DNA of 61,217 nucleotides, filler included, from Nemertoderma westbladi (lineage: Eukaryota; Animalia; Xenacoelomorpha), in NCBI GenBank assembly GCA_032718475.1. It is 3 parts of 3 records of this genome, joined end to end, with 100 filler letters (N's around TTAATTAATTAA, not from the genome) between each part and the next. Parts side by side here need not be neighbours in the genome. Positions count along the whole stretch, not along the records: positions 26,085 to 44,830 come from JAUCBJ010005548.1; 2 more parts are not named here. One strand, given 5' to 3'. Of the stretch, positions 4,601 through 52,247 are shown in pieces (within the stretch, counting starts at the first letter, position 1; each line of letters starts with the position of its first letter). The notes beneath the pieces were generated by a model. The model was not told where the DNA came from, searched no databases, and was given only the letters and a program-made list of their open reading frames with translations. The position numbers were made by a program, and so were the translations under genes.

Positions 4601-5467
4601 TTTCGAAACGGTTTATTATATTATGCTCTGCCGATGTTGGTATTCTGGCTTTCTTCCAAAAGATCATTACCTCACGGACTACAATTGTAGAACTCTCTCG
4701 AACAGTATTTTTCTCAACATCATGATAATGGTGATATAGTCTCAATGCTTCACCCCATGTTGGCAACTTTGTACCAGTAAGTCCTGAGACAGGAAAGCCA
4801 ATCAACCAAACTTCTGAGTTCTTACGAGTTGTTGGTTTGTTTACTTTTGCCATTAAAATATGTCAGAGAATGTGAAATCCAAAGCAGGACAACCGTAATA
4901 ATAAGTGTACCAGCAACAACTTAATCTGCAAACTGAAAGCCTACAAATAATTTATTCAGCCTGGTAGTCAGTCATTAGGCCTATATGAGACCAATCTATG
5001 AAGTAGAGAATACAATACTGCAATATGTAAGGTACCAGTACATACAGAAATTCCTTATGAATTCATGTGAAGTGATTAAATATCAACCAAACATTCAAAC
5101 AATATAAAAATATATAATTAAATCAGTATGATGATTGACGATGTTATTTGGAAATAGTCTAACAATCACCATCACACAGCTGCACTAACAATTAGATAGG
5201 CATGAATCAATGATTACTTAGAGATTATTCAAAGATTAAAATGAGGGGGGGGTAATCAAACGCAATAATGCAGTACCGGTACCGGCACCGGTAATACATA
5301 TAGGCGATACGGGTAGAAATTTTAGCCAGTGTCTGGCAGTGGTTAATGCATATTAATTTTAATGAAATTTTGCATGAGCTATCACCTTATGAATATAAAC
5401 ACATTTTGGTGGTAAGACATTGAAAAATATGAAAATAAAAAATAAGTGCCATTTTTGGGCCACCCTA
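1662..5467 (-). mobile_element. hAT-superfamily (hATm-like) DNA transposon, full length
   Basis: Termini TAGGGTGGCCC / GGGCCACCCTA with imperfect subterminal IRs; perfect 8-bp TSD AGGCCTAT (1654-1661, 5468-5475); internal transposase ORFs. Confidence 0.92.
2433..4853 (-). pseudogene. DDE transposase (hATm-type), disrupted
   Basis: ORFs 4512-4853, 2918-4354 and 2433-3071 join into one protein with HWDGK, MSFDTT.TNTG, ACRHH, ARWM, RHLWYL and NDFAERGV motifs; frameshifts near 3110 and 3068; AT-rich interruption about 4400-4565. Confidence 0.88.
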
Positions 5468-10137: not shown

Positions 10138-10562
10138 TACTTTGGGAACCGTCCCTTCGAAACACTTATACTGTATATACCGGAACCGCTTATTTTATGA
10201 AACACTTTTTACAATTTTTTTCATAAACATTTTTTTTTTCATAAATAAGTAAAACACGTCATAAACAAATTAAGGAAAAGGAGCATGTTACAGAAGCAGG
10301 CTTTTCTAACCAAAACAATAAACGCCCACTTTACCAATTGAGGGAAAGAAGCAGCAGGTTACAGAGGCGGGTTTTTCTAACCAAAACAATAAACGATCAC
10401 TTTACCAATTGAGGGAAACAATATGGTCAGGTCAGACAGTCAGTAGAAAAAATGTTTATGAAAAAATATTGTAAAATGTGTTTCATAAAATAAGCGGTAT
10501 ATATATATATATATAGTATATACTGTATATATAAAAGTGTTTCAAGGGCGGTCCCCAAAGTG
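10138..10562. mobile_element. MITE with long imperfect TIRs
   Basis: ACTTTGGGAACCGTCCCTT... / ...AAGGGCGGTCCCCAAAGT, plus inner IR ACCGCTTATTTTATGAAACAC; second copy at 1312-5506. Confidence 0.8.
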
Positions 10563-10618
10563 AACACACTTATAACAATCCCCACAATTTGTAATTTTGT
10601 AACCACCAAATTTAATCA

Positions 10619-10710: not shown

Positions 10711-13569
10711 CAGTATATATATATATAAATATCATTTTTCACAGTATACAGGAATGTTTACATTCAAAATGGTTACATAAAAATTATGTCCTGCGTTGTT
10801 AGATATAATTGTATTTGTAATATAATTTGTAGCAATTGTATTTTTATTTATAACTGATTTGAATCCGGTAAATTAAATTATTACATGTGCTATTGACTTT
10901 CGTTTATTGTTTTGGTTAGAATAACATGTCACAGTAACCTGCGTTTTCCCTGAAAATCTCAGGACCTAACGACTTAGTAGCCTGCCCTTTAAACTTACAG
11001 TCTGAAAGTATCTATTTACAGATTGTAACTCTTTAGCAAGCTGCATTTTATCTTTCATTTGTTGGTTTGGTTCCCCGATCGCTGCCTCTGAATCCTGCTC
11101 CTTTATAAACCTGAAACCTGAAGCGGCAGATCAGATCTACTACCGTGGAAATTATCGCGCGGGAACGCATCAAACCACCAGCCAATGCAATGGAAGGTAC
11201 AGTAGTAGGCCTACAGAGCCTAAAAATTTAGTGATGATATTTAGTGAAATTGTAAAAATTTTTACAGTAAAATAATGATTATATTTAGTGAATATATGAT
11301 TAGTTAATAATAATAATAAATTATTATTTTTAGTGATAAATTATTATTTTTTAGTTAAAAATGGTTATTTTTTGTTTAAAATGATTATTTTTAGTGATAA
11401 GTCATTTATTCTTTTTGCAATGATTTTTAGTGATAAATTAATTATTTAGTCATTAGTGATGAGTTATTATTTTTAGTGATTTTGGCATTAGATTTAGGGA
11501 AAAACTCGTGATGTTAAATTGTGGTACGTACGTACATACTACCACAGTTTAACGTCACAGTTACTTATTTCTAATTTTCAACATACAGTAACGCCATTAG
11601 TATTTACCTAAAATTTATATGTAGGTAGGCCTATACACTATACAGTATGGTATGTACTGTATATTTAATAGCTGACTTCAGTAGGCCTATAGTTGGGTAA
11701 TTTACAGTAGTCTTATCAGAACTCTATGGACGAGTATATTATTTCAATGAAAATGAACCATAATCTTATTATAATTGTTTTTTGTCTTTATGGTTATTTT
11801 AAAAACATTAAAAATTTTTTTTTGAAATGATTCAGTTAGGCCTACACACGTCTCCTACTGTTAAAGCACAGTATCTGTAAAATACAGCTGTTTATCTACT
11901 GATAATTAAGTTTAAAATATTTGTACTACTGTAGTTGTTGCATACGGTCAAATTTCAGACTGTTCTAGCTTAGGGCAAGTACTGTAATGTAATGTAGCGA
12001 GTACTCTACTGTACTGTAATTAAATGCTAAAATATTAAAATATACCATAACTTTTGATTGGTTGGGTTAAATCTGTAATATTAAGTTAAGTTCTAACGAT
12101 TTCTTTATCTTTTCATTCTTGTTATAAAGTTAAAGGTTGGTTGGAGAAATCCAACCAACCAATCCAACTGCGTACATCTTGTTGTTGGGAACTACTTTAA
12201 CAGTGTTAACTTCTGATCCTCGCGGCTTTATTTTCAATCACTCACTATGTTCGTTCGTGTAACAAACTATTTGATCATTTGATTATTTATTGGAGATAAT
12301 TAGAAAATCATAAGGAACGAATGCGGAAAATATGTTGTTATGTGTATAGGTCCTACTGTATACTGTTAAGTAGTAGTCATTCGTTTACACGTTATACAGT
12401 ACTGACGATAAATTTCATTTAATTTAAAATGAATGCAAAATCATAGTCAGTCAGCCAGCCACCTTCGTAGTATGTATTACTGTGGCACCACTGCAGACGG
12501 GAATTTGTCAGAATTGACATGGCAGCATGGCGTGACGCCATGTCAATTCTGACAAATTCCGAAAATCCGAAAATTCCTAAAAATTAAAGTAAATTGATAG
12601 ATTATATAATCTGTAAATAATTTGTAACTTTATTTGTAATTACACCGCGCAACGCTTTTATATTTTTTCTAATAGGCGGAAAAAATTAGTTAATTACATA
12701 ATTAGTTAATTACATAATTAGTTAGGCCTAATTAATTATATATATATATATATTATTCTATTGCATCAAATGCATACGATAAACAGATAGGCCTAAGTAC
12801 ATAACTGTATTATAGAATTATATTATTTGTTATTACAATATTACCGGAATGCCTACATAATTATTTTGTTTTGTTATGTTATTAGGTTATTATAATTATA
12901 TTGTTTAGTGCTCTATGTCCAATACAATATTTTTTTAATTATTTCTCAAACTGTTTTGGTTTCATGTTATGTTGCAGTTTCTATTATGATGTTAAATTAA
13001 ATTTACCAATCAATAGCAGTTGTAGTCTATAGCAATATGTACCTGTAATTAATTCTGAGCATGGCAGCATGGTGGCAGTGTACACATTAGTAGGAGGGGT
13101 CTGGCGGCGTCATGGTGAGCCTGTCTAGACAGAGTAGACCTTCAGTTTTTTTTGTTTGCAGTGTTTTTATTAATTTAATTTTAAGTTTAACTCAACCAAC
13201 CAAAATGTATTTGTCTGTGTTTATCATAATCTTTACTTTGAAGTGTTTTTCTAAAACTACCGGTAGCTGAACTACATTTTGTAACAGATTTAAGTAATAA
13301 AGCATTTTTTGATACAACAAAAAGGTTGCTTGAGGGTGGCGTAACGTCTGACACATTCTACGTATATCAGTATATTCAGCCTACTGTTGCGCTACCGGTA
13401 CTCAATACTGCAGTACGCCGATCGTCCGTTCTCCAGTTATCTGCTGTACCCCAGTCATAACCAGTCAGGCAGTTACTGGCTGACTACCTACCGGTACCGG
13501 CACTTTCGTGGATTCGGTTGAAGGAGTCCCTACTTATTCTAGAATATAACTTTCTGGAATCGCTCCCCA

Positions 13570-14709
13570 ATGCTTTCTCTGTACCAGACGGCTTCCATGA
13601 TGGAGCTTCAGAATGCCGCCGTCGACTTTATGGCGATGGGTACTCCTATGATCCCCTGCGCCACAACAGGCGGCAGTATGCCACTCGGGTGGCAACAAAC
13701 GCCCACGTACGACGCCCTGCAGATGAACCAAATCCCGTTGCGGGACGAGGTGGGAATGTCCCGGGCCAATCTCATTGTCAACTACCTGCCGCAGAACATG
13801 GGCGAATCCGAGGTGCGCATCCTCTTCCAACCGCACGGCGAGCTGGAGAGCTGCAAACTGATACGGGACAAGAACACCGGGGCGAGCATGGGCTACGCAT
13901 TCGTGCAGTACAGGCGTGAGGAAGACGCGGCGAAGGCGATACAAGCGCTAAACAGTCTGCGAGTCCAGAACAAAACCATTAAAGTATCGTTGGCGCGTCC
14001 GAGTTGCCCGCAGATAAAGGGCGCAAATCTGTACATCAGCAACCTCCCGAAGTCGATGTCACAACCGCAGCTCGAGTACATGTTCAGTAAGTGCGGTAAG
14101 ATAATAACCAGCCGGATTCTCGTCGACCAACAGAGCGGGTTGAGTCGCGGGATCGGGTTTATTCGCTTCGATCACAGGGCCGAGGCCGAGAAAGCGATCG
14201 CGGACTTCCACGGGTTCGTCCCGGAGGGATGCCTCGAGGCCATGAGCGTGAAGTTCGCGAACCCGCCGAACAACAACGCGGGGGGGAAGGGGGTCTACGT
14301 GAGTCAGCAGCGCACGGCGACGGGGGGGCCGTTGATGCACCCGCGGAACGCGTTCCGTCTGGTGTCCGCGGCGCTCCCGTACGCGGTGGGGAACGACGTG
14401 CTCCACGGCCGCGTGCTGCCCAACCCCAACGGGTGGCCGCTGTTCGTGTACAACCTGGCCCCCGACGCCGGGGAGCAGGGCCTCTGGGAGCTGTTCGGCC
14501 CGTTCGGCGCGGTCACCAGCGTGCGCGTCATACGCGACAAGGACAGCGCCAAGTGTAAGGGGTACGGGTTCGTGACGATGCCCAACCCAGACGAGGCGGC
14601 TCTCGCGATCGCCTCCCTCAACGGCTCCATACACAATAACAGAATGCTACAGGTATCCTTTAAGACCAACAACCGAAAGGGTTTCAGCTCAACTTCTTCC
14701 AGTCCTTAG
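13570..14709 (+). CDS. elav: ELAV/Hu-family RNA-binding protein (3 RRMs), intronless CDS
   Basis: NLIVNYLPQ, MGYAFVQY, IKVSLARPS, ANLYISNLPK, RGIGFIRFD, LFVYNL, KCKGYGFVTM and LQVSFKT motifs; RRM1-RRM2-hinge-RRM3 layout; U-rich downstream region. Confidence 0.96.
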   Translation: MLSLYQTASMMELQNAAVDFMAMGTPMIPCATTGGSMPLGWQQTPTYDALQMNQIPLRDEVGMSRANLIVNYLPQNMGESEVRILFQPHGELESCKLIRDKNTGASMGYAFVQYRREEDAAKAIQALNSLRVQNKTIKVSLARPSCPQIKGANLYISNLPKSMSQPQLEYMFSKCGKIITSRILVDQQSGLSRGIGFIRFDHRAEAEKAIADFHGFVPEGCLEAMSVKFANPPNNNAGGKGVYVSQQRTATGGPLMHPRNAFRLVSAALPYAVGNDVLHGRVLPNPNGWPLFVYNLAPDAGEQGLWELFGPFGAVTSVRVIRDKDSAKCKGYGFVTMPNPDEAALAIASLNGSIHNNRMLQVSFKTNNRKGFSSTSSSP

Positions 14710-16909: not shown

Positions 16910-17822
16910 GGGTGAATAAAAAATAGACCAAAGACCCAATTATAAAGACCTGCATAACATTGTAACATGTGTTAACTTTTGTTTATTGTTTTGGTTCCCC
17001 CAACATGCCTCTGTAACCTGCTCCTTTACTAACCTGCTCCTTTAAATTGCAATGGGACCTAACGCTCTTTGGGGCCTAACTCTCTTTGGGACCTAACGCT
17101 CTTTGGAACCTAACGCTCTTTGGGACCTAACGCGCTTTGGGACCTAACGCTCTTTGGGACCTAACCCACTTTGGGACCTAACGCTCTTTGGGACCTAACC
17201 CACTTTGGGACCTAACGCTCTTTGGAACCTAACGCTCTTTGGGTCCTAACGCTCTTTGGGACCTAACGCGCTTTGGGACCTAACGCTCTTTGGGACCTAA
17301 CCCACTTTGGGACCTAACCCACTTTGGGACCTAACGCTCTTTGGAACCTAACGCTCTTTGGGACCTAACCCACTTTGGGACCTAACCCACTTTGGGACCT
17401 AACGCTCTTTGGAACCTAACGCTCTTTGGGTCCTAACGCTCTTTGGGACCTAACGCGCTTTGGGACCTAACGCTCTTTGGGACCTAACCCACTTTGGGAC
17501 CTAACCCACTTTGGGACCTAACGCTCTTTGGAACCTAACGCTCTTTGGGTCCTAACGCTCTTTGGGACCTAACGCACTTTGGGACCTAACGCGCTTTGGG
17601 ACCTAACGCGCTTTGGGACCTAACGCTCTTTGGAACCTAACGCGACTTTACCTCTTTGTTTTCTACGGTTCCCAAAGAGTGTTAGACCCCATTGCCATTT
17701 AAAGGAGCAGGTTAATAAAGGAGCAGGTTGCAGAGGCGTGTTGGGGGAACCAAAACAATAAACGAAAGTTAACACATGTGTTTTGTACAGGTCTTTCTTT
17801 AGTCTTTGTTTTCTACTCACCC
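16910..17822. mobile_element. MITE with ~150-bp TIRs carrying an internal 17-bp satellite
   Basis: GGGTGA.TA.AAAA... / ...TTTTCTACTCACCC termini; imperfect ~9-bp flanking duplication CTTCCTTCC/CTTCCTGCC; relative without the array at 37834-38114. Confidence 0.82.
17054..17649. repeat. 17-bp minisatellite GGGACCTAACGCTCTTT x~35
   Basis: Parsed unit by unit; five recurrent variants. Confidence 0.95.
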
Positions 17823-23710: not shown

Positions 23711-24227
23711 TGAGGAGGTAGACTGGGAGATAAGTTTTTCGAACTGTAAAAAATCAAATAATTATATAATAGGGTTCGCCTTTCTAACTTACTTATGGTT
23801 CTATTCAATTTATAATATTGCGAAAATTAGCGATTTTTTATAGAATTAAATAATTCATATTGTCATCAATTATTACGGTATTCTATTTAAAAACTTAATG
23901 ATAGTCAAGTAACTATTCATATAATACGTATCTCCTTTCTCCACAAATAACAGCTGATTATTAATCAGCTGTTATTAATCATTAATCAGCTCTTATCATT
24001 GACATTCGTTTTTTTTATTTTGGGTAAAATAATCTGCCACTGTAACCTGCTATTTCCCTTAATTGGTAATTTAACATCAATACGAGATATTATTTTTCGA
24101 GATATGGGATTGCATCCATTTTTTCCCACATGTCTGGTTATTTTAGGTTAAGTTGTATTGAAGTTAAATTCCCATGTGGTACTCTGTTACCTTAACCATC
24201 TGTAACTCACCTTATTACATTATAAAT

Positions 24228-25095
24228 ATGAAATCACTATTAATATTTCTCATACTGATAGACGTTGCTATGGGCTCTTTTTTGTATGTAAAATTCAAGT
24301 TTAATGGATATAAACTAGTCGAACCGGATGGATCTCCGTTTACTAGACAATGTTTAGTTAAAGAAGACAGAGATAATATCAGAATACACGTTGATTTTAT
24401 TATTGAGGCCCAAAGTACATTGGATATTCCCGATGTTCTGGAGTTAGAAGTTACTGCTAAAGGTGGTAATGGTTACAACATAATTGTGTCGAATGCGATA
24501 AACGCTAATATAGATGTTTGTTCCATGAACAACGTTGTTGCTACTTCTTGTGATGGATGGAATACGACTGAATATACATCTAGTTATACAGATTTAGGAG
24601 GAGCTACAGGATTCATAACTGTTGGGTTGAATCCTCCTGTTTTGGAATCTGTACCGGATGAATTTGAGATAAGAATAAAATATTACATGACTCAATTGGC
24701 AGTTACTGCGGTACAACTTCAGAATAACACGGCCTTCCCCAATCAGACAGCTTTTCCACTGATCATACCTCTAACCCAATGTAGAGCGGATACTAAACCA
24801 GAGTGTAGCTGCGATGTACTGAGTTGTACTTATATAGAAGGCAGTTCAGCTATATTAACCTGTAAGTTATCGGATTGGGTACCGATACCGGTAGCTGGAA
24901 TTACATCAGGAGATTCTAGATGGAGTTGGTATAGTAACGGAGTTGCTATTGGTGGAGGGTTTAATGAATCACATGATACACTGAGTATAACTTGGCTGCT
25001 AAGTCGAGGAGATAATGGGGCAGAGTTTATATGTAAGGCGCGGAATATAGCTATAGAAGATGATAAATCCTGTGACACTACGATCGTAGTTCAAT
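24228..25095 (+). CDS. first coding exon of a secreted or cell-surface Ig-superfamily protein (partial)
   Basis: Signal peptide MKSLLIFLILIDVAMG; C2-set-like Ig domain (EGSSAILTC...WSWY...SRGDNGAEFICKARN...TIVVQ); phase-1 donor GTAAGT at 25096, typical of Ig exon ends; the rest of the listed ORF is intron/LINE. Confidence 0.8.
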
Positions 25096-25127
25096 GTAAG
25101 TTTGAGAAATCCATTAAACGTTATAAC

Positions 25128-25490
25128 GTACTACTACTACTACTAGGTCGAGCGAACTCGGACAGTGGAAATGAGATCCTTCCAGGCTTCCCGATTCTCC
25201 ATAGTTGTCGAAATTTCGTTTCTCCCAAGTTCAGTATCCCTTTCAAGTTGATCTATATATGTTATGGCTGGTCGTCCACAACTACGCTTTCCATGAGTTG
25301 GTTGCCAGAAAAGTAGATCTGGTATGATCTCGTCTTTACTTCTCCAGCAGTGCCCACTGAATCTTAATCTGCGTTCACCGATGGCGGTAGATACAGGTGG
25401 TATAGTGCCATAGAGCTCGGTGTTTGTCATGTGTTGTCTCTCCAGCTGATGTTAGATGCCTTTAGTAGTCTTGGGTAGCAACCATCACTT
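25128..25490 (-). mobile_element. RTE-clade LINE, 5'-truncated 3' end
   Basis: RRLRFSGHCWR...LLFWQP.HG.R..GRP C-terminal motif; (TAG)n tail at 25128-25146. Confidence 0.85.
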
Positions 25491-25879
25491 CGGTGTTCAA
25501 CTGATCTGATTCAAGTGATCGGGATTATCTGCATCTTCAAAGACTGTGTCCTTTAAGAGGCGTCTCAAATTCTCTCCATGAGGCCACGGAAACACATGAT
25601 CGCGCACAGGTAACCTACCTACTGATGGGGGCTACTGTGGGACCCTTCAGGATACCAATGATACATAATTACCATATGCTGCAATTATTATGCTCAGCAT
25701 AATTGCAGTATAAGGTATTCTTGATAAGCTACATTAATGATTCTGCAACAATTGTGTCTACTGCTATGGAAGACAGTTAATGCAGCAGGTACAGAAACAG
25801 TTCCTGTAGACACTCGAAGCAGAAAAATGCACTGTGGACTGCCCACACAATTCAGAAGTGCCGAAATGACCTATATAAG

Positions 25880-25955
25880 GCGCAGAAAGAGTCCCGACTC
25901 AAACAGACTACAGCGGCCAAGAATGCAGTTAAGGCTGCATATAGGTCCCTAAACA
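25880..25955. repeat. short dispersed repeat (inverted copy at 54753-54825)
   Basis: AGAGTCCCGACTCAAAC.GACTACAGCG.CCAA.AATGCAG shared between both sites. Confidence 0.7.
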
Positions 25956-25984
25956 TGCAGTACTCTGTTAATCTACAGGAACTA

Positions 25985-26084
25985 NNNNNNNNNNNNNNNN
26001 NNNNNNNNNNNNNNNNNNNNNNNNNNNNTTAATTAATTAANNNNNNNNNNNNNNNNNNNNNNNNNNNNNNNNNNNNNNNNNNNN
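25985..26084. other. artificial scaffold linker N44-TTAATTAATTAA-N44
   Basis: Exactly 100 bp; stop codons in all six frames; identical linker at 44831-44930. Confidence 0.97.
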
Positions 26085-26138
26085 TACTACGGTATTTTGC
26101 AACCTTATTGCCTACTGCAATAAGATTATAACTGTTAC

Positions 26139-29100
26139 TGTTCGCGCTTTTGAAGACCTTTAGCAGTTTAACCTGCCAAAATTTATATGTCTTTTAGTTA
26201 ATTAACACACCTTTAGCATACGACAATATTTTATGCTAATAAACAAAACATTAGCCGAAGCCAGCCCATGCGCGATCATTCACCCGATGGATCTACACCC
26301 GGGAGGCTGAATTCGGATGCTTAGATTTTATTATTGCAGTGTAAGGTTGCAGTGTAAGTCTACTGTATTATTCGATTGATCGCTAATATGTAATTTCTGA
26401 CAGATATTATTAACTTTAGGGAAATATTAACAGTTCCTTTAGGACGTGGCGCTCTATCTATTTAAACAGAGCTAGGACTTATACTAAACGCAACGATAAG
26501 GCTTATGATTAAAGTATAAGTCGCATTCTTTAGGAAATGCTTTGTTACCAGTCACATCACACTCACAATCATGCACACTATTCTGCCGACCGTCAGTATA
26601 TTTGATCACACATAAAGAGAACAGCAATTGACTCATGTAGGGTCTGCTAAATAACATTAGATTCAATACACACCACATTAATATAAATCGCAATTGTTAT
26701 ATATAGCCCGCCTCTCTAACCTGTAGTGTATCAAGAAAATTGGGAATTTGGGTGATTTATCCGTATTATCCAAAGAGCAATATTTCCATCAACAAATAGG
26801 TACAATTAATAACTGACGGTAAATAACAGTACAAACAATATGATTAGTGCAGTTAAATTAAGTGAGGTAACACCGCCGGTAACAGTTATACTTTCTATAA
26901 TCTAAGCAGTTTCACTAGAGTTCTTAGAGCCGGTGTTTCTGGCTTAGACAGCAATAACAACAAAGTATCAAGTAAAAACAGTAAGACTGAACACTCTCCT
27001 TATGATCGGCCGAAAAGCTACACGTCGACAGGAAAAATCGCTCTGATTGGCTCAAGCCAAACAAAGAACCATGCATCCAATGGCTGTTTCCATGTCAGCA
27101 ACCAGCTGTTAGATGTCGTAATATGAATCATCACGGCTAAGCTGTGAAAGGTAGTTGGTGCATTGCAGGTTTTTTGCCTTACCATGTCCGCCAAAACACG
27201 TATATAGCAGAATGACTTTTATGTCCGTTAAAACACCTGTAACGGTACCTTGCGGGCGAGGGGAATATATATACAGTTAGAGAACCTTTTTAGAGTATTC
27301 CAGCGCCTGGGGGGAAACTGGATTGCGAAGCAAAAGGGGCCAGTTATATCCCACAGAAGCTTTTGCAAGCATTCCATAATGTCACCATAGCAACACCCAC
27401 GCTAGAATTAGAAGCAAGTTAAAAGAACAATAGAAAGCTTGTCACATTGCATAGCATAGAGAATACATAGCACACTGTTAGTATCCAAGGATACACAGTA
27501 ATAACGTGACATTCTGGAAGGCACTGACTAACGGACAAATGGCCTGTATGTGTACAATTGGTGACAGTTGTGTGGAATCTGTGCGTTTGTAGGTGAATGT
27601 TACTGCTAAGGTGTGTTTACAGTAGCTAGTCGCAATTGTGAAAGTAGCCCAACTCTCCTATAGAAAGAACCTAAAGTGGATTCAAGCCTTTGGGACGGAC
27701 AGTGGAGTGACTTGTGCCGGTTATCGTTGTCGTGATGTTGCTACATGTTGGCGTAAACACCGCGACGACGGTACATCGGCGCTGAGAATCCCACTGTCCG
27801 GGGCGAAGAGAGGTAGGCAGCGACGCCCGCTCGCCTAAACATAAACTCATTACAATATTAATAAACTCAGATAGCAGATATGACGGAGTTGATAGAAGAT
27901 GATCTTGGTATCAGGGAGCGATATACTCTACCTTTACAAGCATTTGTGGATAGCTTGATACGCGGTGAAGCCGATCTAACCATTACGGAGGACGATGGTC
28001 GTTATATCGAACAGCCGATGTCCCAAGAGCAACTTACGCGTGAATTGGACTATCGAAAATTCACCGCTCGCTATACGCATCGTAATGGTACGTATATGGA
28101 CTTCCTAACTACCGGCCATCCTATCGATTTACATGATACGGACGATGTAGACACCGAAAGGGAAATGGTTCTATTTAAATATCATACCCAGCGGAGTCGT
28201 AACGATAAACCGAAAATAGATCACGAAAATTATATTCGTAACAGAGTGGGAAGACGAACCAATATGCCTAGAATCTGAGGAGATTCAGCCTATCGCGCCC
28301 GGAACAGCGACAACGATTACATCCTAGAATGGTATCAAGGTCCACAGTGTCTCACTGCGTACGATTATCGCCATGCCAACTATGTTTCTCGGCAACGCTG
28401 TCGGTTATGCGCATCGAGAGACCATGTTACGCCCATGGACACAAACGTCCGCTGTTCCTATTTCCACGAACAACCGGCGATGGAAATTTATTGCGCGTAT
28501 TGCAGACTCAATAACTTGCATATTTTTGCGGTTTGCCCTCAATTTATGACTCAATGTCACCATTGTCAACTAAAGGGACACGCCAGTTTCGATTGCCCTT
28601 TTAATCACGATTTGGAAAGCGTAGATGAAATGATCACACTACGTTACATCAGAGCTTGGGAAGCGAACGCTGATTTAGATTGTGATTCGCGCCATCGCTA
28701 TTATCCCGGACGCGCTTACGAAGGAGTTTATGCGTTCCATCCTTATCTATTCGCTTCTGTCGAACAGAAATCACGCATATCGAGTTACGAACTACTGAAG
28801 CGCGTCGGAGAATGTATTTCAACCAAGTTCGTACGTAAATTTCTCAGGAGTGTTAATCCTAGCGACCTTCATTCCTATAACTTAATCAATTACATCCGTC
28901 AGGATCCGGACTATGGAGACTTATTTGTTAACTCACACCCAGAGTTACAGGAAGTATATCAGCGGCCTTACGAATACCGAGCCCGCGAACGCTAGTTGGA
29001 AAGAACCATTAAACCCCGGAGGTTTCTAACTGCCTATGGTCCACCCACGGCCCTCGTTCACACCACTCGTAAAGGACCCGTAAGAGCGGCTGTCTTAAAA

Positions 29101-30639
29101 CGAGCTCTCAAAGCCGTTAGACCCCTCTCCCCCGACGTTGATGTCAATCAACCCGGTACTTCGACTGGCGGATACACCGACCATAATCCTACACCCTCTG
29201 ATGCAATCATATTGCACCCTTCACCCAGGAGTTATAGCCCTCCTTGTAAAGTGGCTCGCCCCAAAGAGAAAAGGACTCTGGCTAGCTTTAAAAAACTGCG
29301 TAAACGCCTTCCACGCAAGAAAGACTAACTGTTTAGAGTATTTACGTATATTAGAAACTGTGATTTTGTATATTTTATAGACTCAAATCCCATTTTCTGG
29401 GAGCGGTGTAAAAGCTTCTGTGGGATATAACTGGCCCTTTTGCTTCGCAATCCAGTTTCCCCCCAGGCGCTGGAATACTCTAAAAGGCTCTCTAACTATA
29501 TATATGTCCCCCTCGCCCGCAAGGTACCGTTATAGGTGTTTTAACGGACATAAAAGTCATTCTTCTATATACGTGCTTTGGAGGACATGGTAAGGCAAAA
29601 AACCCGCAATGCACCAAATACCCTTACACAGCTTAGCCTTGATGATTCAGATTGCGACATCTAACAGCTGGTTGCTGACATGGAAACGGCCATTGGACAC
29701 ATGGTTCTTTGTTTAGCTTAAGCCAATCAGAGTGATTTTTTCTGTCGATGTGGAGATATTCGGCCGATCATACTAGGAGTGTTCAGTCTTACTGTTTTTG
29801 TGATACTGTTGTGTTCCTTCTATCTAGGCCAGGAACACCGGCTCTAGAGTCAATTCGTTTCAGACTTTAGAAGAAACATTAGTAGGCTTAAGATTATAGA
29901 GCGTATAACTGTTATCGGTCCAGTCAAACAGTGTTACCATCTTAACCTACCGTCTTAATGCTATTTACTGTTGTGTTTTGGTTGAATATTATTATTTGGA
30001 GAACATTTATAAAGAACCCAAATTTCCCAATTTTCTTGATACACTACAGGTTAGAGAGACGGGTTATATATAGCGATTGCGACTTATATTGTTGTGGTTT
30101 GTAGTGAATTTAATGCTATTTGATAAGCACTACATGAGTCCGTTGCTGCTCTCTTTATATATGATAAAATTCATTGACGGTCGGCAAATTAGTGAGCAGT
30201 ATTGTGTGTTACCGGTAGTGTGCCTGATTGTGACTGATAACTAAGCATTTCCTAAAGAATGCGCCTCATACGTGAATCATAAGCCTTACCGACTTACCGT
30301 TGTGATTAGTATAAGTCATATCTCTGTTTACCTAGATAGAGCGCCACGTCCTAAAGGAACTGTTAATATTTCCCGAAAGTGAATAATATTAGTCAGAAAT
30401 TATTTATTAACGATCAATCGAATAATACAGTAAGCTTACACTGCAATAATAATCTAAGCCCTCAGAATCCAGTCTCCCGGGTATATCCAGCGGGTGAATG
30501 GACGCGCACTAGGCTGGCTTCTGCTAATGTTGTGTTTATTGGTATTAAATATTTGTCAACTTCTAAAGTCTATTTGTAAACCAAAAGACATATAAATTTT
30601 GGCAGGTTAAACTGCTAAAGGTCTTCAAAAGCGCGTACA
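26139..30639 (+). mobile_element. unclassified element with ~1.23-kb inverted arms enclosing a zinc-knuckle ORF
   Basis: Arms 26139-27367 and 29407-30639 are reverse complements along their length (diverged); TGT...ACA ends; flanks GTTAC/GTTCC. Confidence 0.85.
27880..29328 (+). pseudogene. 482-codon triple CCHC zinc-knuckle protein with two in-frame stops
   Basis: ORFs 27880-28278, 28435-28995 and 28996-29328 share one frame and 28279-28434 is open; motifs CRLCASRDH-x9-C, CAYCRLNNLHIFAVC, CHHCQLKGHASFDC; basic C-terminus KKLRKRLPRKKD. Confidence 0.8.
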
Positions 30640-30694
30640 GTTCCTTTTATTCATTTGTGGTTAATTTGCGCCACCATCTGTAATTTTGATATAC

Positions 30695-32420
30695 TTAAAG
30701 TGGGGGGGGGGGGGGGGGGGGGGGTGGGTGGGGGATACCCCCTCCTTGGGTAAAATTGTCACATTTTTGGTTTCTTATTTCATCTGATGCAGAATTTAAT
30801 GGGGAGTACAAATCTTAAAACCGTTTGGCGAGATCTTTTTTAGTTCTCGAGTTATCGCTGTCTTTCCGTCTACCAGTTTGTCAGTCAAAATTTAGAAGGC
30901 AGACAGACAGACAGACATATTAGATGCCACCAAACATTAAAACTCCCATATTGATAATTTTAATGAGTTGGTATGAAGCCATAGTGTCAAACATTACAGA
31001 CCGATTAACAGACTACAGACAGTCAGATTTGAGTGGGAAATTTCAAAATTTAAAGCAAATTATCTCGGAATATAACATTTCACGATATTTCAATTTTTCA
31101 AAATACTACTCCTCCGCCGTTTTTCACCCAAATTCGATGATTTATGGCTCGTTTGAAAGGTTTTTTGAAGATCTTGAAAAATTATCCAGGACTTTTTTGA
31201 AAATTGTTTTTTTAATTTTATTGAAAATTTCAATTAATTTAATTAATTTTAATTAATTAATTTAATTAATTTTAATTAATTAATTTAATTAATTTTAATT
31301 AATTTTAATTAATTAATTTAATTAATTTTAATTAATTAATTTAATTAATTTACTTAAAAATTAATAATTTAAAAATCGGCTGGATAATTTTTGTAGATTC
31401 GAATGTGCTGAGTCCAAAAAATTTGGTTTCAAACAATTTGGATAAATATTAAGGGACTAGTAGTGTTTTTAGTGAAATGTTTAATTCTGCCACTCGCCGC
31501 TAGAGGAATACAATAAATTTTAAAATTTCAATTTTTGTTGCTTTTTGGCCTTCCCCACGTTGGCTGAACACCACATAACATTGATATAGACCTACAACAC
31601 AAAGTTAGAGCTGTAGCAACCCCAAATTGAACCTCTCATTTTTTTGTCTGTGGACCCTAAAATTGGGTGAAAATTATTTTTGTTCAACTAAACATCGTCT
31701 GGACGGTGTAAGAATAACCAAACCAAATATTTTTAAAATTGGCCCTAAAATGGCTCTATAATGGCCAAAAGTGCCTTTTTGCGACAAGGACTATTTCTCC
31801 ACCAATATTTGTTGAAATTTGGAATATAAGTTCAGAAGAACCCTGCATCCAATTCTCCTGAACAAATTTTGCGCTTTTTTTGGCCTTTTTGATATAAAAA
31901 GGCTCCAGGGCATTTTCAACCAAATTTGTTCAGATGAAGTATGGAGAAAGGTATTCTTAACAAGTGTACCAAATTTCAACTCATTTCAGTTAAAATTGGC
32001 AGAGAAATAGCCTTTTTCATGAAAAAACGTCATTCTGAGATATGGGTGTTAAAGTTTAAGGAACAATTCAAATCTTCCCGCTATTTTAGATAATACCATT
32101 TTTCTATGTTTAACAAAAATTTTGTCAAAAATTAGTGAAATTCCACGAAATTTTTCATGCTTGCAAAACAGATAACTAGTAAAACAACGTTTTAACAATT
32201 TTATTCATATCTGTAACGTGAGAGCCTTTTTTTATTAAAAGGGTCCCGTACAATTGTAAAATATAGTGCTGCTCGAAGGCTTGTCAAAAATCAGACTAGT
32301 TCTAACGGTTTGGGTAATAATGTAACTTGAGTTTGAGAAAAGATATGAGAAAACTACTTAGAGATTTGAAATCTCCATTAAATTCGGCACACGATAGGGG
32401 TAGAATAAAAAAAGCATGCA
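30695..32420. mobile_element. non-autonomous DNA element(s); 31620-32410 is homologous to 53870-54685
   Basis: About 800-bp direct repeat shared with the Piezo-intron copy; subterminal IR GAATTTAATGG / CCATTAAATTC; (GACA)n and (TTAA)n tracts. Confidence 0.7.
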
Positions 32421-39555: not shown

Positions 39556-40654
39556 AGATTTATTGGCCGATTGAGAAAGATCGATAGGGGACAGAGACAA
39601 TGGGAACAATATAGTTCAACACAAAAGGAAGCACAAGGGAATACTGTAGGCCTACTCCTACTAACTCAAGTACATAAGATGTTGGGCTAATTTACTTATT
39701 GTGTCAAAATAAATTACGTTTGAAATTAATTCCTCAAAAACGGTATATCATGAAAGCTCCAGAAATGAAAATTAATTTCAATGCAAATCTAATTAAAATA
39801 AAATAACTGGCAAATTAATATCGTTCATATCGAACCTGCCTGTTTAGGAGGGGTCAGTATTTTGTAAAAAGTTTTGGAAAGTACCTACAGTATATGGCAC
39901 ATCTCTCTCTACCAGTATGTGTCCAAATCAGCAGTTATGTTACTTCAGTATAACAGTTTCGAGACTTTGCCCAATTATAACGTACAAATATTTTCAGACA
40001 AATCACAATGAGCGTAACGAAGCTAATACTGTAATAGACGCGAATTCCGTTGACTCCTAAACCACCCTAACCCTGGTCTAACATTGACCGATTTATAATT
40101 TTGATCATTAGGCTACTGACTGGTAGTGGATTGTTGCAATCTGGGGGGGGGGGGGGGGGGTGTTGATCTCCAGGAGAACTCTCCGGGAGATCTCTGCTTC
40201 TTTCGCTGAATTGATACATGAAACCTGGCTAATTCGCCGAGGTGGGGATTTGTATCAATAACCCCCCCCCCTGTCTCGGTGGTTGCAGGGAGATGCCTAA
40301 AATTAAAAAACCTCTTGTGGAAGCTGCACAAGGGGCAGCAAGGCCATTATTTATCCCCTGTGTCTGTGTGGCTGCTGAACTTCTGGTAACAAAGATTTCC
40401 AACATAACAGTAGCAATTATTGTGTACATAGTATTGGGTATAGAAGTGTACTGAGCCTCTAATATTGTGTATTGCGTGAAATAAGTATGTATGTAGTATG
40501 TAATATTGAGCGTTCGAGATACTGTACATAATAATCTTGGAGATTGATCCATAACAGCAGATCAGGTACACAATGCTTTAAATAATCATAATGAATGATC
40601 TCCCATCCCCTGATCACCTCAATCCAAAGTAAAAGATAGAAATTATCTACTAAC

Positions 40655-40801
40655 CCTGAAATTATCATTGAGGAATCCATATATAAGAGGGTTGATGAAG
40701 CTGTTTGACATCGCCAGCCAATGACAACAGAAGTAAATAGCTCTGTAGACATTCATATTTACTGGAGTAGGAGTAACTATAAGGTTGACGATACTAAATA
40801 C
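40655..40801 (-). CDS. class A neuropeptide-type GPCR, ECL3-TM7 exon (tachykinin/luqin/leucokinin/GPR83-like group)
   Basis: Acceptor TTTTCATTCTAG, donor GTTAGT; 49 codons [49 protein letters not shown] with HWLAMSN and NPxxY motifs. Confidence 0.9.
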
Positions 40802-41326: not shown

Positions 41327-42939
41327 CAAGGCGTACCGGTACTATATACAATTATACAAGGCCATCGAGTTAACTGGGGGCGGTGACTGGGGGAAAGATT
41401 TTTTTTACAACAATTTGATATTTTGATATGGGGAGAGTTCTATAAATTGTCATTTGTTGCAATTTTATTAATGGACGTAATTGAAGCATCCTCGTTAAGT
41501 AAGCAAAATAAAAATTTTTATGGTAGCTACAGTAGTGTTTTAGGTACGTTTAGCTAGTAATTTAAACACTGGTTCCGACATTCTACTCCCCTCTATAAAT
41601 ATTTTGTAGTAGCTAGTTCTTGTTACTATTTGTATAGAAAATGTTCTAGAACATGTTAGCTATTCAATTTTTAAAAAAGTTATGTTCTAGAACACATATT
41701 TTTGTTCTTTATTTCTTTTTCTTTCAATTTCTTTTTTTTTGTTCTATATTTTTGTTATTTATGTTTTTTAGAAAAAATCTGGATTCGATTTAAAACGCAT
41801 GAAATCAATAAAAAAAAATGCGCGAGCGAGGCCTCGCTTGTGTGTTAGGGGGAGTGCGGAGGCGCTTACAGTTCGCGCTTCTGCGCTCGAGCTCCCTGTG
41901 CCTGCGTGGTGGTAGGCGGCCATGGAGGGCACTCGGATTTGGGGACGGTGCCGGTCTGCGGGGGTCTGACCTTCCTGATCGGTACTGATCCCTTGCCTCT
42001 GAGCTCCAACATATCCTTCCGGTGCTTTGGTGGTAGGCCCGATGATATTTGTGTGGTGGCGGAATTAATTTTGTTATTTTTGGTGCACATCTTTTTAATT
42101 TATGAGTGTATAAAAGTTAAAAAAAAAAATAATAAAAAAAAAAAAAATAAAAAAAAAAATAAAAAAAATTTCAAATATTTTTTCAATAATATTTTTTCAC
42201 AATTTTTTTTATTGATCTTAAACACGTTTTAGATACGAAACACGTGATCTTAAATCCAAATTTTTTCTAAAAAATGTTCTCGAACAAAAATATTTGTTCT
42301 AAAAAATATATGTTAAAAAATGAATAGCTAACATGTTCTGGAACATTTTCTATACAAATAGTAACAAGAACTAGCTACTATAAAATATTTATAGAAGGAA
42401 GTAGGATATCGGGACCAGTGTTAAAATTACTAGCTAAACCTAACTAAATCAAAAATAATTTAATATCTTGCTTAAAAAGAGGATGCTTCAATTACGTCCA
42501 TTAACAAAATTGCAACAAATTAAAATTTATAGAACTCTCCCCATGCCTGCACACACACAATACACGGAGTACGCTACCGGTTATAATCCAGCCTCCATAA
42601 ATTATGAAGGCTGCATGCTTGCAAGGCCTTTAATAGAGTACGCTATGTCAAAGAGTAACAAGAACTAGCTACTACAAAATATTTATAGAGGGAAGTTACA
42701 GTATGTCGGAACAAGTGTCGAAATTACTAGCTAAACCTACCTAAAACACTAGCTACCATAAAATTTTGTATCTTACTTAACGAGGATGCTTCAATTACGT
42801 CCATTGACCAAATTGCAGCAAATGGAAATTTATAGAACTCTCCCCATATGAAAATATTATCAAATTGTTGTAAAAAAAATCTTGCCCCCAGTCACCGCCC
42901 CCAGTTAACTCGATGGCATGGCCTTGTATGTACGCCTTG
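41327..42939. mobile_element. foldback-type element with hAT-like ends
   Basis: Ends CAAGGCGTAC / GTACGCCTTG; perfect 8-bp TSD CTTGTAGA; long IRs (41355-41705 vs 42280-42545 and 42655-42928). Confidence 0.85.
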
Positions 42940-44830: not shown

Positions 44831-44930
44831 NNNNNNNNNNNNNNNNNNNNNNNNNNNNNNNNNNNNNNNNNNNNTTAATTAATTAANNNNNNNNNNNNNN
44901 NNNNNNNNNNNNNNNNNNNNNNNNNNNNNN
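44831..44930. other. artificial scaffold linker
   Basis: N44-TTAATTAATTAA-N44. Confidence 0.97.
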
Positions 44931-47335: not shown

Positions 47336-48293
47336 AAGTTGTGGTGGCTAAACGTGACAGCATGCGCGAGAGGGGCCTTCAAGTGTCCTGGGTGGAGTGA
47401 GACGGCGCCTTCAATTCGCCCTGCTCCGGTCTAGTTCCCTGTGCCTCCGTGGTGGACGGCGATCATGGCGCGGTCTATGTTTCGGCGACGGAGCCGGGCT
47501 GCGTGGCAATGATATTGCCACGCAATATGGCTGAACTCAGTACAATAGTTTCTTTAGTTAATATAAGTTGAAACTACTTACCGGTAATTATTACCCTCGA
47601 TATAATACTTATAAATACCGCGAGTATATTTTTTACATTTATTTACTACATTTCCTTATCAGAAAAATGCAGTATTACCCAATTTAATTTTTTTTAATTT
47701 AGTAGGTAATGTAAACGTGTACATTTATGTAACTACTTCAATTTTTAGAGTTGCACATTAATTTTAGTACTTCAATTCATACTGTAGGTGTATGAAAACA
47801 CACGTACTATAAATTTGTTGGTTTATTATAGGTTTGTATACTTTATTGGTTACTTAGTTGTGTCTCAGTGTCATATTGATATTTGTTATAATTATAAATA
47901 ATAAGTGAATAAAATAAAATAAAAAAAGTTCCAAAGACGAAAAATAAAGCCGCAGAGGAAGCTAAATATTGTCAAACATACGATTTTTAACGGTTTTTTT
48001 TTCTATCGAAATAGCTCAGAAAATAATGTATCCGGCCCTGCCAGCAGTAAGAAAAGTTGTCGAACTATCTATCTTCATACCGAATTTCGTACCATTTGAT
48101 TGAAATTTTAAAAAAATTGGTGGTGGTTGCTCCGACTTGCTAAAAATGTTTGTTGTATTAAGGGAGATGGTGCGTATTAAGGGAGATGGTGCACTCTATA
48201 TGGGGAAATGGTGCACTCTATATGGGGAAATGGGGAGTATTGTAGTTCATCCGAACGAAACGGGGACCGCGGGGGTGGGGGGGGGGGGGGGGG

Positions 48294-51136
48294 CTACATC
48301 ATGTAGTACACCAGAACGAAACGCGGGTACATCATGTAGTACACCAGAACGAAACGCGGGTACATCATGTAGTACACCAGAACGGAACGGGGGTACATCA
48401 TGTAGTACACCAACCAGAACGGAACGGGGGTAAATTATGTAGTACACCAGAACGGAACGGGGGTACATCATGTAGTACACCAGAACGGAACGGGGGTACA
48501 TCATGTCGTACACCAGAACGGAACGGATGTATATCGTGTAGTACATCAGAACGGAACGGGGGTACATCATGTAGTACACCAACCATAACGGAACGGGGGT
48601 AAATCATGTAGTACACCAGAACGGAACGGGGGTACATCATGTAGTACACCAGAACGAAACGCGGGTACATCATGTAGTACACCAGAACGGAACGGGGGTA
48701 CATCATGTAGTACACCAACCAGAACGGAACGGGGGTAAATCATGTAGTACACCAGAACGGAACGGGGGTACATCATGTAGTACACCAGAACGGAACGGGG
48801 GTACATCATGTCGTACACCAGAACGGAACGGATGTATATCGTGTAGTACATCAGAACGAAACGGGGGTACATCATGTAGTACACCAACCAGAACGGAACG
48901 GGGGTAAATCATGTAGTACACCAGAACGGAACGGGGGTACATCATGTAGTACACCAGAACGGAACGGGGGTACATCATGTAGTACACCAGAACGAAACGG
49001 GGGTACATCATGTAGTACACCAGAACGGAACGGGGGTACATCATGTAGTACACCAGAACGGAACGGGGGTACATCATGTAGTACACCAACCAGAACGGAA
49101 CGGGGGTATATCATGTAGTACACCAGAACGGAACGGGGGTACATCATGTACTACACCAGAACGGAACGGGGGTACATCATGTAGTACACCAGAACGGAAC
49201 GGGGGTACATCATGTAGTACACCAACCAGAACGGAACGGGGGTAAATCATGTAGTACACCAACCAGAACGGAACGGGGGTACATCATGTAGTACACCAAC
49301 CAGAACGGAACGGGGGTACATCATGTAGTACACCAGAACGGAACGGGGGTACATCATGTAGTACACCAGAACGGAACGGGGGTACATCATGTAGTACACC
49401 AGATCGAAACGGGGGTACATCATGTAGTACACCAGAACGGAACGAGGGTACATCATGTAGTACACCAGAACGAAACGGGGGTACATCATGTAGTACACCA
49501 GAACGGAACGGGGGTACATCATGTAGTACACCAACCAGAACGGAACGGGGGTACATCATGTAGTACACCAACCAGAACGGAACGGGGGTACATCATGTAG
49601 TACCAACCAGAACGGAACGGGGGTACATCATGTAGTACACCAGAACGGAACGGGGGTACATCATGTAGTACACCAGAACGGAACGGGGGTACATCATGTA
49701 GTACACCAGAACGAAACGGGGGTACATCATGTAGTACACCAGAACGGAACGAGGGTACATCATGTAGTACACCAACCAGAACGGAATGGGGGTATATCAT
49801 GTAGTACACCAACCAGAACGGAACGGGGGTACATCATGTAGTACACCAACCAGAACGGAACGGGGGTACATCGTGTAGTACACCAGAACGGAACGGGGGT
49901 ACATCATGTAGTACACCAGAACGGAACGGGGGTACATCATGTAGTACACCAGAACGAAACGGGGGTACATCATGTAGTACACCAGAACGGAACGAGGGTA
50001 CATCATGTAGTACACCAACCAGAACGGAATGGGGGTATATAATGTAGTACACCAACCAGAACGGAACGGGGGTACATCATGTAGTACACCAGAACGGAAC
50101 GGGGGTACATCATGTAGTACACCAACCAGAACGGAACGGGGGTACATCGTGTAGTACATCAGAACGGAACGGATGTATATCGTGTAGTACACCAGAACGA
50201 AACGGGGGTACATCATGTAGTACACCAGAACGGAACGAGGGTACATCATGTAGTACACCAACCAGAACGGAACGGGGGTATATCATGTAGTACACCAACC
50301 AGAACGGAACGGGGGTACATCATGTAGTACACCAACCAGAACGGAACGGGGGTACATCATGTAGTACACCAGAACGGAACGGGGGTACATCATGTAGTAC
50401 ACCAGAACGGAACGGGGGTACATCATGTAGTACACCAGAACGGAACGGGGGTACATCATGTAGTACACCAGAACGTAACGGGGGTACATCATGTAGTACA
50501 CCAGAACGGAACGGGGGTACATCATGTAGTACATCAGAACGGAACGGGGGTACATCATGTAGTACATCAGAACGGAACGGGGGTACATCATGTAGTACAC
50601 CAGAACGGAACGGGGGTACATCATGTAGTACACCAGAACGGAACGGGGGTACATCATGTAGTACACCAGAACGGAACGGGGGTACATCATGTAGTACATC
50701 ACAACGGAACGGGGGTACATCATGTAGTACACCACAACGGAACGGGGGTACATCATGTAGAAAACCAGAACGGAACGCGGGTACATCATGTAGTACACCA
50801 GAACGGAACGGGGGTACATCATGTAGTACACCAGAACGGAACGGGGGTACATCATGTAGTACACCAGAACGTAACGGGGGTACATCATGTAGTACATCAC
50901 AACGGAACGGGGGTACATCATGTAGAAAACCAGAACGGAACGCGGGTACATCATGTAGTACACCAGAACGGAACGGGGGTACATCATGTAGTACACCAGA
51001 ACGGAACGGGGGTACATCATGTAGTACACCAGAACGTAACGGGGGTACATCATGTAGTACACCAGAACGGAACGGGGGTACATCATGTAGTACATCAGAA
51101 CGGAACGGGGGTACATCACTACATCATGTAGTACAC
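48294..51136. repeat. 33/37-bp satellite array, roughly 84 units
   Basis: Unit CCAGAACGGAACGGGGGTACATCATGTAGTACA with +CCAA variants; explains the GVLHDVPPFRS / VYYMMYPRSVL ORFs. Confidence 0.97.
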
Positions 51137-51392
51137 TCGACTGTAATCAACTGACAGTACTGTATATTTGTGTCGATTTTCCCTGGTGGGGGTTAAATTT
51201 TGATGTCGCCACCACCCCCCTCCCCCCCCCATGTGGCTCGCCCCACACCAATTACGGGAAGAAACTCAGAATACATTATTTCATTTACTATTTAATTTAT
51301 CCAATAATTTATTTCATTTATATTTAATATATCTTATGCCAAATACAAATACAGTAATTATAATTAATTATAATAAACCATATTTTTTTCAG

Positions 51393-52247
51393 GTTCAATA
51401 TTTTATCCATCGTCTACCTAATTTTCATGATATTGATTCCTCTGATAAGAACACCTTCCCCGCTATCCTGGAACCGTTACATGAGTCGCTTCCTAAAAGC
51501 CCTGGCCACTTGTAGTTTCCTGTTTACGCTAACTAACGCGACAATCGTGATTCTGTTTGCGTCACAAGTAATCCCCGCGGAATGCAGTTGCCATGGAGAC
51601 ACATCCAATTGCCGGGAAGAAGTAACGCGGATATTAATGAGTCTCGGGTTCAGTGTCGTGACGTCATGGAATCAATGGAAACCAGTGGTGCGAGCCGTAG
51701 TGCCAGACATTATGGTATTTTGTTTCGCTTGTGCAACGCATATTATATGTAAAAGGAAATTAGTTTCAGTTTCACGAACGAATGCGTTTAGACCACAACA
51801 CATACTTCGTCTGTTGTATAAGAACGCACGAAATCACATTATATTACCTGGAATCCTTCCCCCCGCTCTGGTTATACCATCTGCGATATCAGCCGTGTAC
51901 TTTCTGATACTTCTGTTAATATTGAATTGTATTGCGATTGGTAGAGTTAGTCCCTTAATGTCCTATAAATTCCGTGTTTTTATTGGCGTATATTCGGCCA
52001 TTCATCTAATCGCTATGTACATGGGCCAACTCCCGGTCACGGATAGACAGGATAAGGAGTACCTCAGGCGAATTCTCGGGCTCCCCATATTTATTCAACA
52101 CCAATGCGAGTATTTCAATGAGATGTTTTTCCGTGAGATAAAAGTTGACAAGGCTATTCACGTTGTCTCAGTCTGGTTACTCAACGCATTGTGTTTTTTC
52201 TCAGTTCGTCACCGGGACTATCAACCAAAAGTAGAAGGTAAATCAAG
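51393..52247 (+). CDS. PIEZO: Piezo mechanosensitive channel, N-terminal exon (a short upstream exon was not located)
   Basis: Acceptor TTTTTTTCAG; (R)FNILSIVYL, VVPDI and PSAISAVYFL Piezo N-terminal motifs; phase-2 donor GTAAGA at 52248. Confidence 0.85.

Follow-up and report, generated by a model that had tools for sequence, protein, structure and literature searches.

An inverted-arm element with a zinc-knuckle passenger frame in Nemertoderma westbladi, a candidate variant of the integrase-type DNA transposons

What kind of unit is formed by two 1.2-kb inverted arms that enclose a zinc-knuckle frame and no enzyme gene? The question is raised by a 4501-bp element of Nemertoderma westbladi, found in a window of 61 kb (the whole stretch of DNA analysed) that joins three contigs. 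The element lies on the contig at 26085-44830 (JAUCBJ010005548.1), its left end 54 bp inside the contig, and the spacers at 25985-26084 and 44831-44930 are identical, each containing two runs of 44 N around a 12-base spacer with stops in all frames. Every statement on the element refers to a single copy in this one window. It is read here as a real structure and probably as a mobile unit, a variant of the integrase-type DNA transposons; the more specific account, in which a non-autonomous DNA transposon was inserted long ago as a 4.5-kb unit by a Ginger2/Tdd-like integrase acting in trans, is given about an even chance. The features are collected in Table 1.

Table 1. Features of the inverted-arm element, with positions along the window
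Feature	Position	Strand	Remarks
Left copy of putative 5-bp target-site duplication	26134..26138	+	GTTAC; matches 30640-30644 at 4/5 bases
Left arm	26139..27367	+	1229 bp; starts TGT, finishes CA
Two CCAAT-like boxes, one reversed	27046..27081	+	Putative; motif scan; present in both arms
TATA-like box facing the core	27266..27274	+	Putative; present in both arms; 614 bp upstream of ATG
17-nt inverted pair just inside left arm	27369..27522	+	Minor fold; 88% complementary
Unbranched 44-bp RNA hairpin in leader	27696..27800	+	Predicted fold; pri-miRNA-like
AATAAA	27860..27865	+	Between hairpin and ATG
Passenger frame	27880..29328	+	482 codons; basic, Pro/Ser-rich tail
Three CCHC-like zinc motifs	28399-28455, 28492-28536, 28555-28596	+	Pattern
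Right arm	29407..30639	-	1233 bp; read on the minus strand, starts TGT and finishes ACA
Mirror TATA-like and CCAAT-like motifs facing the core	29497..29727	-	Putative; antisense strand
Right copy of putative target-site duplication	30640..30644	+	GTTCC

The first-pass annotation of this DNA had described two inverted arms of about 1.23 kb around a 2.04-kb core, and its coordinates are borne out by blastn, which pairs 26137-27367 with 30641-29407 (80% over 1283 columns including gaps, E=0), and by a global alignment, which leaves a core of 2039 bp. The many substitutions and indels that it reported are also found: the arms show 88.7% identity over aligned bases, with 131 substitutions (67 transitions and 64 transversions) and 35 indels of up to 15 bp. 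The transition to transversion ratio of about 1 is that of other repeat pairs of the window, where five other inverted-repeat pairs are 86-94% identical with indel/substitution ratios of 0.07-0.44, so the divergence of the arms is ordinary for this window. Tandem subrepeats of the foldback type, said to be lacking, are indeed absent from the arms except for one 13-bp unit at 1.9 copies. No third arm copy is found in the 61-kb window by blastn, tblastx of the core gives no match in the rest of the window, and neither the flanks nor the hairpin has a second copy there, so that no empty site is visible. Along the arms the differences are unevenly spread (10 equal bins, chi-square p=0.005), the outer 59 bp having 3.4% (2 differences), the inner 199 bp 5.5% (11 differences) and the middle 16-19%. 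The constrained outer part may be an enzyme-binding end and the constrained inner part a promoter; gene conversion could equally explain the uneven conservation.

The termini of the element read TGT...ACA and are flanked by a putative 5-bp target-site duplication, which the first-pass annotation had missed. Among the flank lengths compared, from 2 to 40, 5 bp gives the sole near-match, and the chance of at least 4/5 matching bases is 0.022; at other lengths the matches are 2/4, 1/6, 1/7, 2/8, 2/9, 3/10, 6/11, 5/15 and 9/25 bases. No matching duplication flanks either arm alone. TG...CA ends with a duplication of 4-6 bp are a mark of retroviral-type integrases, and the duplications of Ginger2/Tdd elements measure 4-5 bp and those of long terminal repeat (LTR) elements 3-6 bp (PMC10045372, in part). 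Mobilisation of the integrase type therefore gains support from the TGT...ACA ends and the 5-bp near-duplication. The left copy also agrees with the HIV-1 target consensus in its 5-bp core but not in the flanks, which is a curiosity only (PMC4005685, in part).

Both arms contain promoter-like motifs that face the core. No poly(A) signal is located between the TATA-like box and the inner arm end, and no TGG primer site within 13 nt after either inner arm end; a bacterial promoter scan and a tRNA scan were uninformative.

The core shows one long frame, as first annotated, and this frame is real but contains two in-frame stops, at 28276-28278 and 28993-28995, and no frameshift. Two stops compare with a simulated mean of 23.9, the lowest count in any frame of 20,000 runs being 6, and the chance openness of its three parts is 0.001, 6e-6 and 0.004. 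Because stops are so depleted against the simulation, the passenger frame is taken as a real gene or a gene relic. The knuckle-like motifs of this frame number three and not one. The knuckle region matches zf-CCHC_3 below the cut-off (E=0.014), and motifs 2 and 3 are spaced like the knuckle pair of Air2 (2lli, E=0.018, with a 77-amino-acid query). Its look-alikes in the Atlas are multi-knuckle proteins at 0.79-0.87, at the level of a lead only. A helical domain is predicted with low confidence (predicted local distance difference test, pLDDT, 54), the model of the middle part has a pLDDT of 36, and Foldseek with the passenger models gives no match at E<=0.001 (best Z 4.8), which is no evidence about the fold. 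The product is predicted to be a nuclear RNA-binding protein. The CpG ratio of the frame is 1.35 against 0.87 for the window, and other parts of the window are equally high.

Searches with the passenger gave no relative. For the read-through frame, 3246 word-sharing candidates (265-844 amino acids) contain no homolog at E<=0.01; for the 238-amino-acid middle part, 31 candidates (130-417 amino acids) contain none at E<=10; and an all-length search of 1.84 billion representatives returns none at E<=0.001. Passenger patterns have 4 matches in viral contigs and 61 in metagenome contigs, none confirmed, and the exact 23-base pattern of the arm end has none in either set. Among PDB sequences the whole passenger has no match at E<=1 and the parts outside the knuckles match only at E>=0.65; PHROGs and NCBIfam contain no family matching its three parts. 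The earlier statement that transposase, integrase, reverse transcriptase (RT), recombinase and polymerase motifs are lacking is upheld by two screens: a six-frame regular-expression screen of the element finds no integrase, RT, recombinase, polB, protease, Walker A or GIY-YIG motif, and Pfam gives no match at E<=0.01 in its frames of at least 52 amino acids. In the 18.7-kb contig, none of 91/91 such frames contains an LTR-type pol or integrase remnant, and Pfam matches at E<=0.01 occur in 4/91, all outside the element: a long interspersed nuclear element (LINE) RT, DUF6451, a 7tm fragment and one chance match below the cut-off.

Two explanations of the in-frame stops were not adopted: in-frame micro-introns, for which the GT-AG pairs seen by eye are weak, and a changed host genetic code, since TAG and TAA end host frames in the window. 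Splice-acceptor-like tracts are seen at two places, one at 29363-29380 (+), between the passenger stop and the right arm, the other finishing at 27663, just upstream of the hairpin; a strong donor-like site is located at 29080.

The leader hairpin, also missed at first, has a predicted energy of -59.7 kcal/mol (z -7.0) against -42 for the reverse strand, and is the most stable of the 8811 local unbranched hairpins counted over the two strands of the window. Its imperfect pairs are 8 G-U and 2 A-C, at most one being of the transversion type, and transversions equal transitions in the arms (p=0.007, an upper bound on the evidence because the folding program prefers such registers); the excess of G-U over A-C is weak by itself (p=0.055). 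Mammalian pri-miRNAs have a stem of 36 +/- 3 nt (PMC5340965) and show UG at -14, UGU at about +22 and CNNC at +16 to +18 (PMC6004053). Here the whole stem measures 44 bp, and the part above the internal loop (27709-27710) is 33 nt long. If the 5' cut is placed at 27722, a register picked post hoc under mammalian rules, the UG at 27708-27709 fits -14 and a CNNC at about +16 fits but is paired, while UGU is off, at +25. No Rfam family is above threshold for the hairpin. The chance that this candidate is a microRNA precursor is put at about one in three; the alternatives are a translational element, a binding site of the knuckle protein or a small palindromic insertion. The AATAAA downstream of it may serve a short non-coding transcript as poly(A) signal. 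The minor fold upstream of the hairpin (27369-27518) has z -3.7 with chosen bounds.

If the element is a non-autonomous transposon of the Ginger2/Tdd type, an integrase supplied from elsewhere in the genome would bind the conserved outer 60 bp, cut and paste the unit and leave a 5-bp duplication, and the missing integrase is expected because the element is read as non-autonomous. The inner part of each arm would serve RNA polymerase II as a promoter: transcripts from the left arm would contain the hairpin, perhaps a small-RNA precursor or translational control element, and the zinc-knuckle gene, and those from the right arm would be antisense. By analogy with DIRS-1, convergent transcription might let this layout silence itself. 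The arms would have diverged within the family before the insertion, ends, promoter and gene being held by selection, and both passenger stops would have arisen after the copy landed. The ages of arms and gene bear on this order of events. Two arms that were identical when the unit inserted would imply about 14 frameshifts in the frame by now, yet it contains none (P about 1e-6); either the arms already differed at that time, as is probable, or selection maintained the gene while they decayed. Dated by the conserved ends (2.1% per copy), the frame should have 1.5 stops, and two are seen; a mismatch in the duplication, also seen, has a chance of 20% under this clock.

Several observations weigh against this account. 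There is only one copy in the 61-kb window; the fifth base is C at both ends, which breaks the TGTNR of Ginger elements; and the arms measure 1.23 kb against tabulated Ginger repeats of 44-297 bp (PMC2836005, in part). The duplication is imperfect, with a random chance of about 2% that rises once several lengths have been tried. Both arms also read CA at the inner end (18% chance within one base), the right arm has an inverted repeat of its own of 4 bp (background 5.6%), that of the left arm being 2 bp (background 18%), and a purine run of 14/16 lies just outside the right arm only (background 0.9%). The inner CA, the right-arm repeat and the purine run point to LTR-like units about as strongly as the flank match points to a single insertion. 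The conserved-end clock predicts 3.7 frameshifts, with a probability of 0.024 for none, and two stops with no frameshift have a probability of 0.03-0.10 under local indel rates, the absence of frameshifts being inferred from stop depletion and not from a homolog. Simple decay is thus a strained fit to stops without frameshifts, and because that combination is improbable, recoding or splicing around the stops may apply.

The same LTR-like signs carry the explanation that a 1.2-kb repeat, a solo LTR or similar, landed twice and independently in head-to-head orientation, the two copies being of different subfamilies and never moving as a unit, and the gene between them being a resident fast-evolving gene or a gag-like remnant. 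TG and CA bound each arm, the purine run stands outside the right arm only, the window is rich in repeats, independent insertions would give 11% divergence and 35 indels beside an unshifted frame, and in a poorly sampled host an orphan host gene is unremarkable. Against this explanation stands the 4/5 flank match, which surrounds the pair and neither single arm; moreover, neither a TGG primer site after the inner ends nor a poly(A) signal on the stretch from TATA to inner end is found, the 18.7-kb contig contains no other arm copy and no pol remnant, and only 78 bp separate the passenger stop from the right arm. It is considered unlikely, yet it is the foremost rival. Clearly more doubtful is a composite in which two opposite LTRs captured the intervening DNA and were then moved together by an LTR-retrotransposon integrase, an intermediate in the origin of Ginger1. 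LTR-sized arms with TG...CA at both ends, promoter motifs and one common 5-bp near-duplication fit it, zinc knuckles and leader hairpin would resemble gag and a packaging signal, and the route itself has been proposed (PMC2836005, in part). The failure to find a TGG primer site or a poly(A) signal counts against it, as do the mid-protein position of the knuckles with no capsid or protease similarity found, the 18% chance of the inner CA, and the uneven conservation of the arms, which suggests long co-existence and not a fresh pairing.

The remaining explanations leave the LTR-like signs aside. An internally deleted relic of an inverted-repeat virus-like element (Polinton/Maverick, virophage-like or ambisense virus), with one cargo gene kept and a right-arm promoter that drove lost genes, would account for long arms with inward promoter-like motifs and for the high CpG ratio of the frame, and the Maverick cargo region adjoins the left repeat (bioRxiv 10.1101/2022.07.12.499685, in part); since Polinton ends and the 6-bp duplication are lacking, no terminal hairpin is found (z -2.4 to -0.8), there is no viral relative and equally high CpG ratios occur elsewhere in the window, such a relic appears highly improbable. 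The first-pass suggestion of an integrated virus or plasmid segment is accordingly weak. Little credence is given to a long-armed element of another DDE superfamily (Galileo/P or MULE), possibly a chimera of two subfamilies, with a 5-bp match due to chance. Repeats of up to 1.25 kb occur in Galileo, whose chimeric copies have arms 79% identical on average (PMC3573991, in part), and MULE repeats are long, contain promoters and carry cargo (PMC6446971, in part), but neither a 7-bp nor an 8-11-bp duplication is present here, where two neighbouring elements retain theirs, and tandem subrepeats are lacking. The mere 54 bp between left end and contig edge suggest an assembly artefact, with two haplotypes or a fold-back read joined close to the end of the contig; this is scarcely credible in view of indels of up to 15 bp, a transition to transversion ratio shared with other repeat pairs, the uneven conservation, the unshifted 1.4-kb frame and the flank match.

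The window also contains a Piezo gene, an ELAV gene, LINE fragments and numerous inverted-repeat elements. The ELAV gene (13543-14709, +) is intronless, with a GC content of 60% against 37% for the window, and its protein is at most 60% identical to relatives among the 120 matches listed, which indicates that the host is a divergent, poorly sampled animal. The Piezo gene (51364-52251 and 55284-61082, +) shows strikingly few introns: a single frame of 1932 codons spans five Piezo Pfam domains, and the N-terminal part is in an upstream frame. Transposase-like frames at 2433-4862 (-), of 116, 499 and 234 amino acids with one frameshift and no Pfam match, have what we take to be a DDE/CxxH look; they sit between inverted repeats at 1290-1648 and 10185-10583, and subterminal motifs of a related kind are found at several sites in the window. 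A fold-back element at 41327-42939 has a perfect 8-bp duplication, CA...TG ends, one partly duplicated arm and a GC-rich, structured, strand-biased core near 41800-42020, and an inverted-repeat element at 16910-17822 has a 10-bp duplication with one mismatch, its interior being taken up by 35 tandem copies of a 17-bp unit. A 382-codon frame at 24168-25316 (+) shows a signal-peptide-like start and, by eye, an immunoglobulin-like C-terminal stretch, with no Pfam match. A minisatellite at 48290-51118 contains about 83 copies of a 33-bp unit with frames open on both strands, and the fragment at 40646-40801 (-) matches the end of a rhodopsin-family seven-transmembrane domain (E=0.00027).

Ginger-type elements connect LTR retrotransposons with cut-and-paste transposons. 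Bao, Kapitonov and Jurka (2010) suggested that Ginger terminal repeats stem from two opposite LTRs (PMC2836005, in part), and a literature search found no example of this route. LTR-sized inverted arms bounded by TG...CA, together with a common 5-bp duplication, make the route from LTRs to Ginger testable. The broadest proposal, quite unlikely, is that of cassettes of an undescribed class, moved by integrases, in which a pair of inverted LTR-like arms would act as promoters of an orphan zinc-knuckle RNA-binding protein and of a microRNA of the cassette itself, convergent transcription providing a built-in silencing switch; if true, such cassettes would be the missing intermediate between LTR retrotransposons and Ginger DNA transposons. 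If selection maintains passenger and strand-biased hairpin in an element that lacks an enzyme, the cargo would seem to be of use to the element. Two independent insertions would leave nothing unusual at the locus except an orphan gene and a possible new microRNA.

The first impression that the element fits no named family cleanly held across the membership tests that were run. Parvoviruses and densoviruses are defined by terminal palindromic hairpins and NS1/VP genes, and an endogenous element of this type was rejected, the element showing no terminal hairpin (z -2.4 to -0.8), no viral homolog and no Pfam match. Penelope-like elements and retrozymes contain a hammerhead ribozyme in the repeat and an RT or GIY-YIG gene; they were rejected as well, since 25500-31500 contains no Rfam match at E<=1 and no hammerhead core pattern. 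From Polinton/Maverick elements, in the parts of their descriptions covered, the element differs in lacking AG-type termini and a 6-bp duplication, and no polB, integrase, ATPase or capsid gene is found in it by regular expressions and Pfam. MULEs differ by a duplication of 8-11 bp. Galileo, of the P superfamily, shows arms of up to 1.25 kb, transposase-less two-arm copies and chimeric copies with about 79% arm identity (PMC3573991, in part), so that long arms alone are not rare; it differs by a 7-bp duplication and internal tandem repeats, and the present element ends in TGT. DIRS-1 has inverted, non-identical terminal repeats (PMC7192593, in part), both of which are promoters whose opposing transcription yields small interfering RNAs (PMC4482531, in part). 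Unlike DIRS-1, the element has no RT and no tyrosine recombinase, and has a flanking near-duplication and TG...CA ends; an internal complementary region of the DIRS type is absent, the best local scores being reached by 23-188 of 200 shuffles in 8/8 tests. KolobokP elements are animal composites with long repeats, but these repeats are direct (PMC9587614, in part). The passenger resembles multi-knuckle proteins of the Air2/ZCCHC7 type in the spacing of knuckles 2 and 3, but has no similarity to them outside the knuckles and is not shown to be a homolog.

The integrase-related systems are closer. IS3EU and GingerRoot are integrase-related, and GingerRoot carries gene fragments; it differs by a 6-bp duplication (1/6 bases match here), mostly TA...TA ends and repeats of 100-150 bp (PMC6839031, in part). 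IS481EU, also integrase-related and with TGT...ACA ends, belongs to parabasalids and shows repeats mostly below 50 bp and duplications of about 4, 15 or 25 bp (PMC10045372, in part). LTR retrotransposons share LTR-sized, TG...CA-bounded, promoter-like arms, CCHC knuckles downstream of the left arm and a 5-bp near-duplication, but here the arms are inverted and not direct, and no TGG primer site, post-TATA poly(A) signal or pol is found. Ginger1 differs by a 4-bp CCGG/CCGT duplication and repeats of 40-270 bp. Ginger2/Tdd differs by its integrase-like transposase (H2C2 and DDE), by repeats of 45-297 bp, the arms of 1229 and 1233 bp being four times the longest tabulated, by a purine at the fifth base of TGTNR, where the element has C, and, in the tabulated metazoan Ginger2 families, by 4-bp duplications at RTATAY against a 5-bp near-match; no passenger gene or hairpin is described in the parts of that source covered (PMC2836005). 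With arms of this length and TGTNR unmatched, the element is not filed as Ginger2/Tdd, although it would work like one. The proposal of a non-autonomous integrase-mobilised unit of an undescribed family gains support in its first part from the TGT...ACA ends and the 5-bp near-duplication, while the word undescribed rests on one copy. With Ginger2/Tdd the element nevertheless shares TGT ends, inverted repeats, the existence of non-autonomous derivatives and the size range, and its 5-bp near-duplication has the length of the duplications made by TDD-4 and TDD-5 (PMC2836005, in part).

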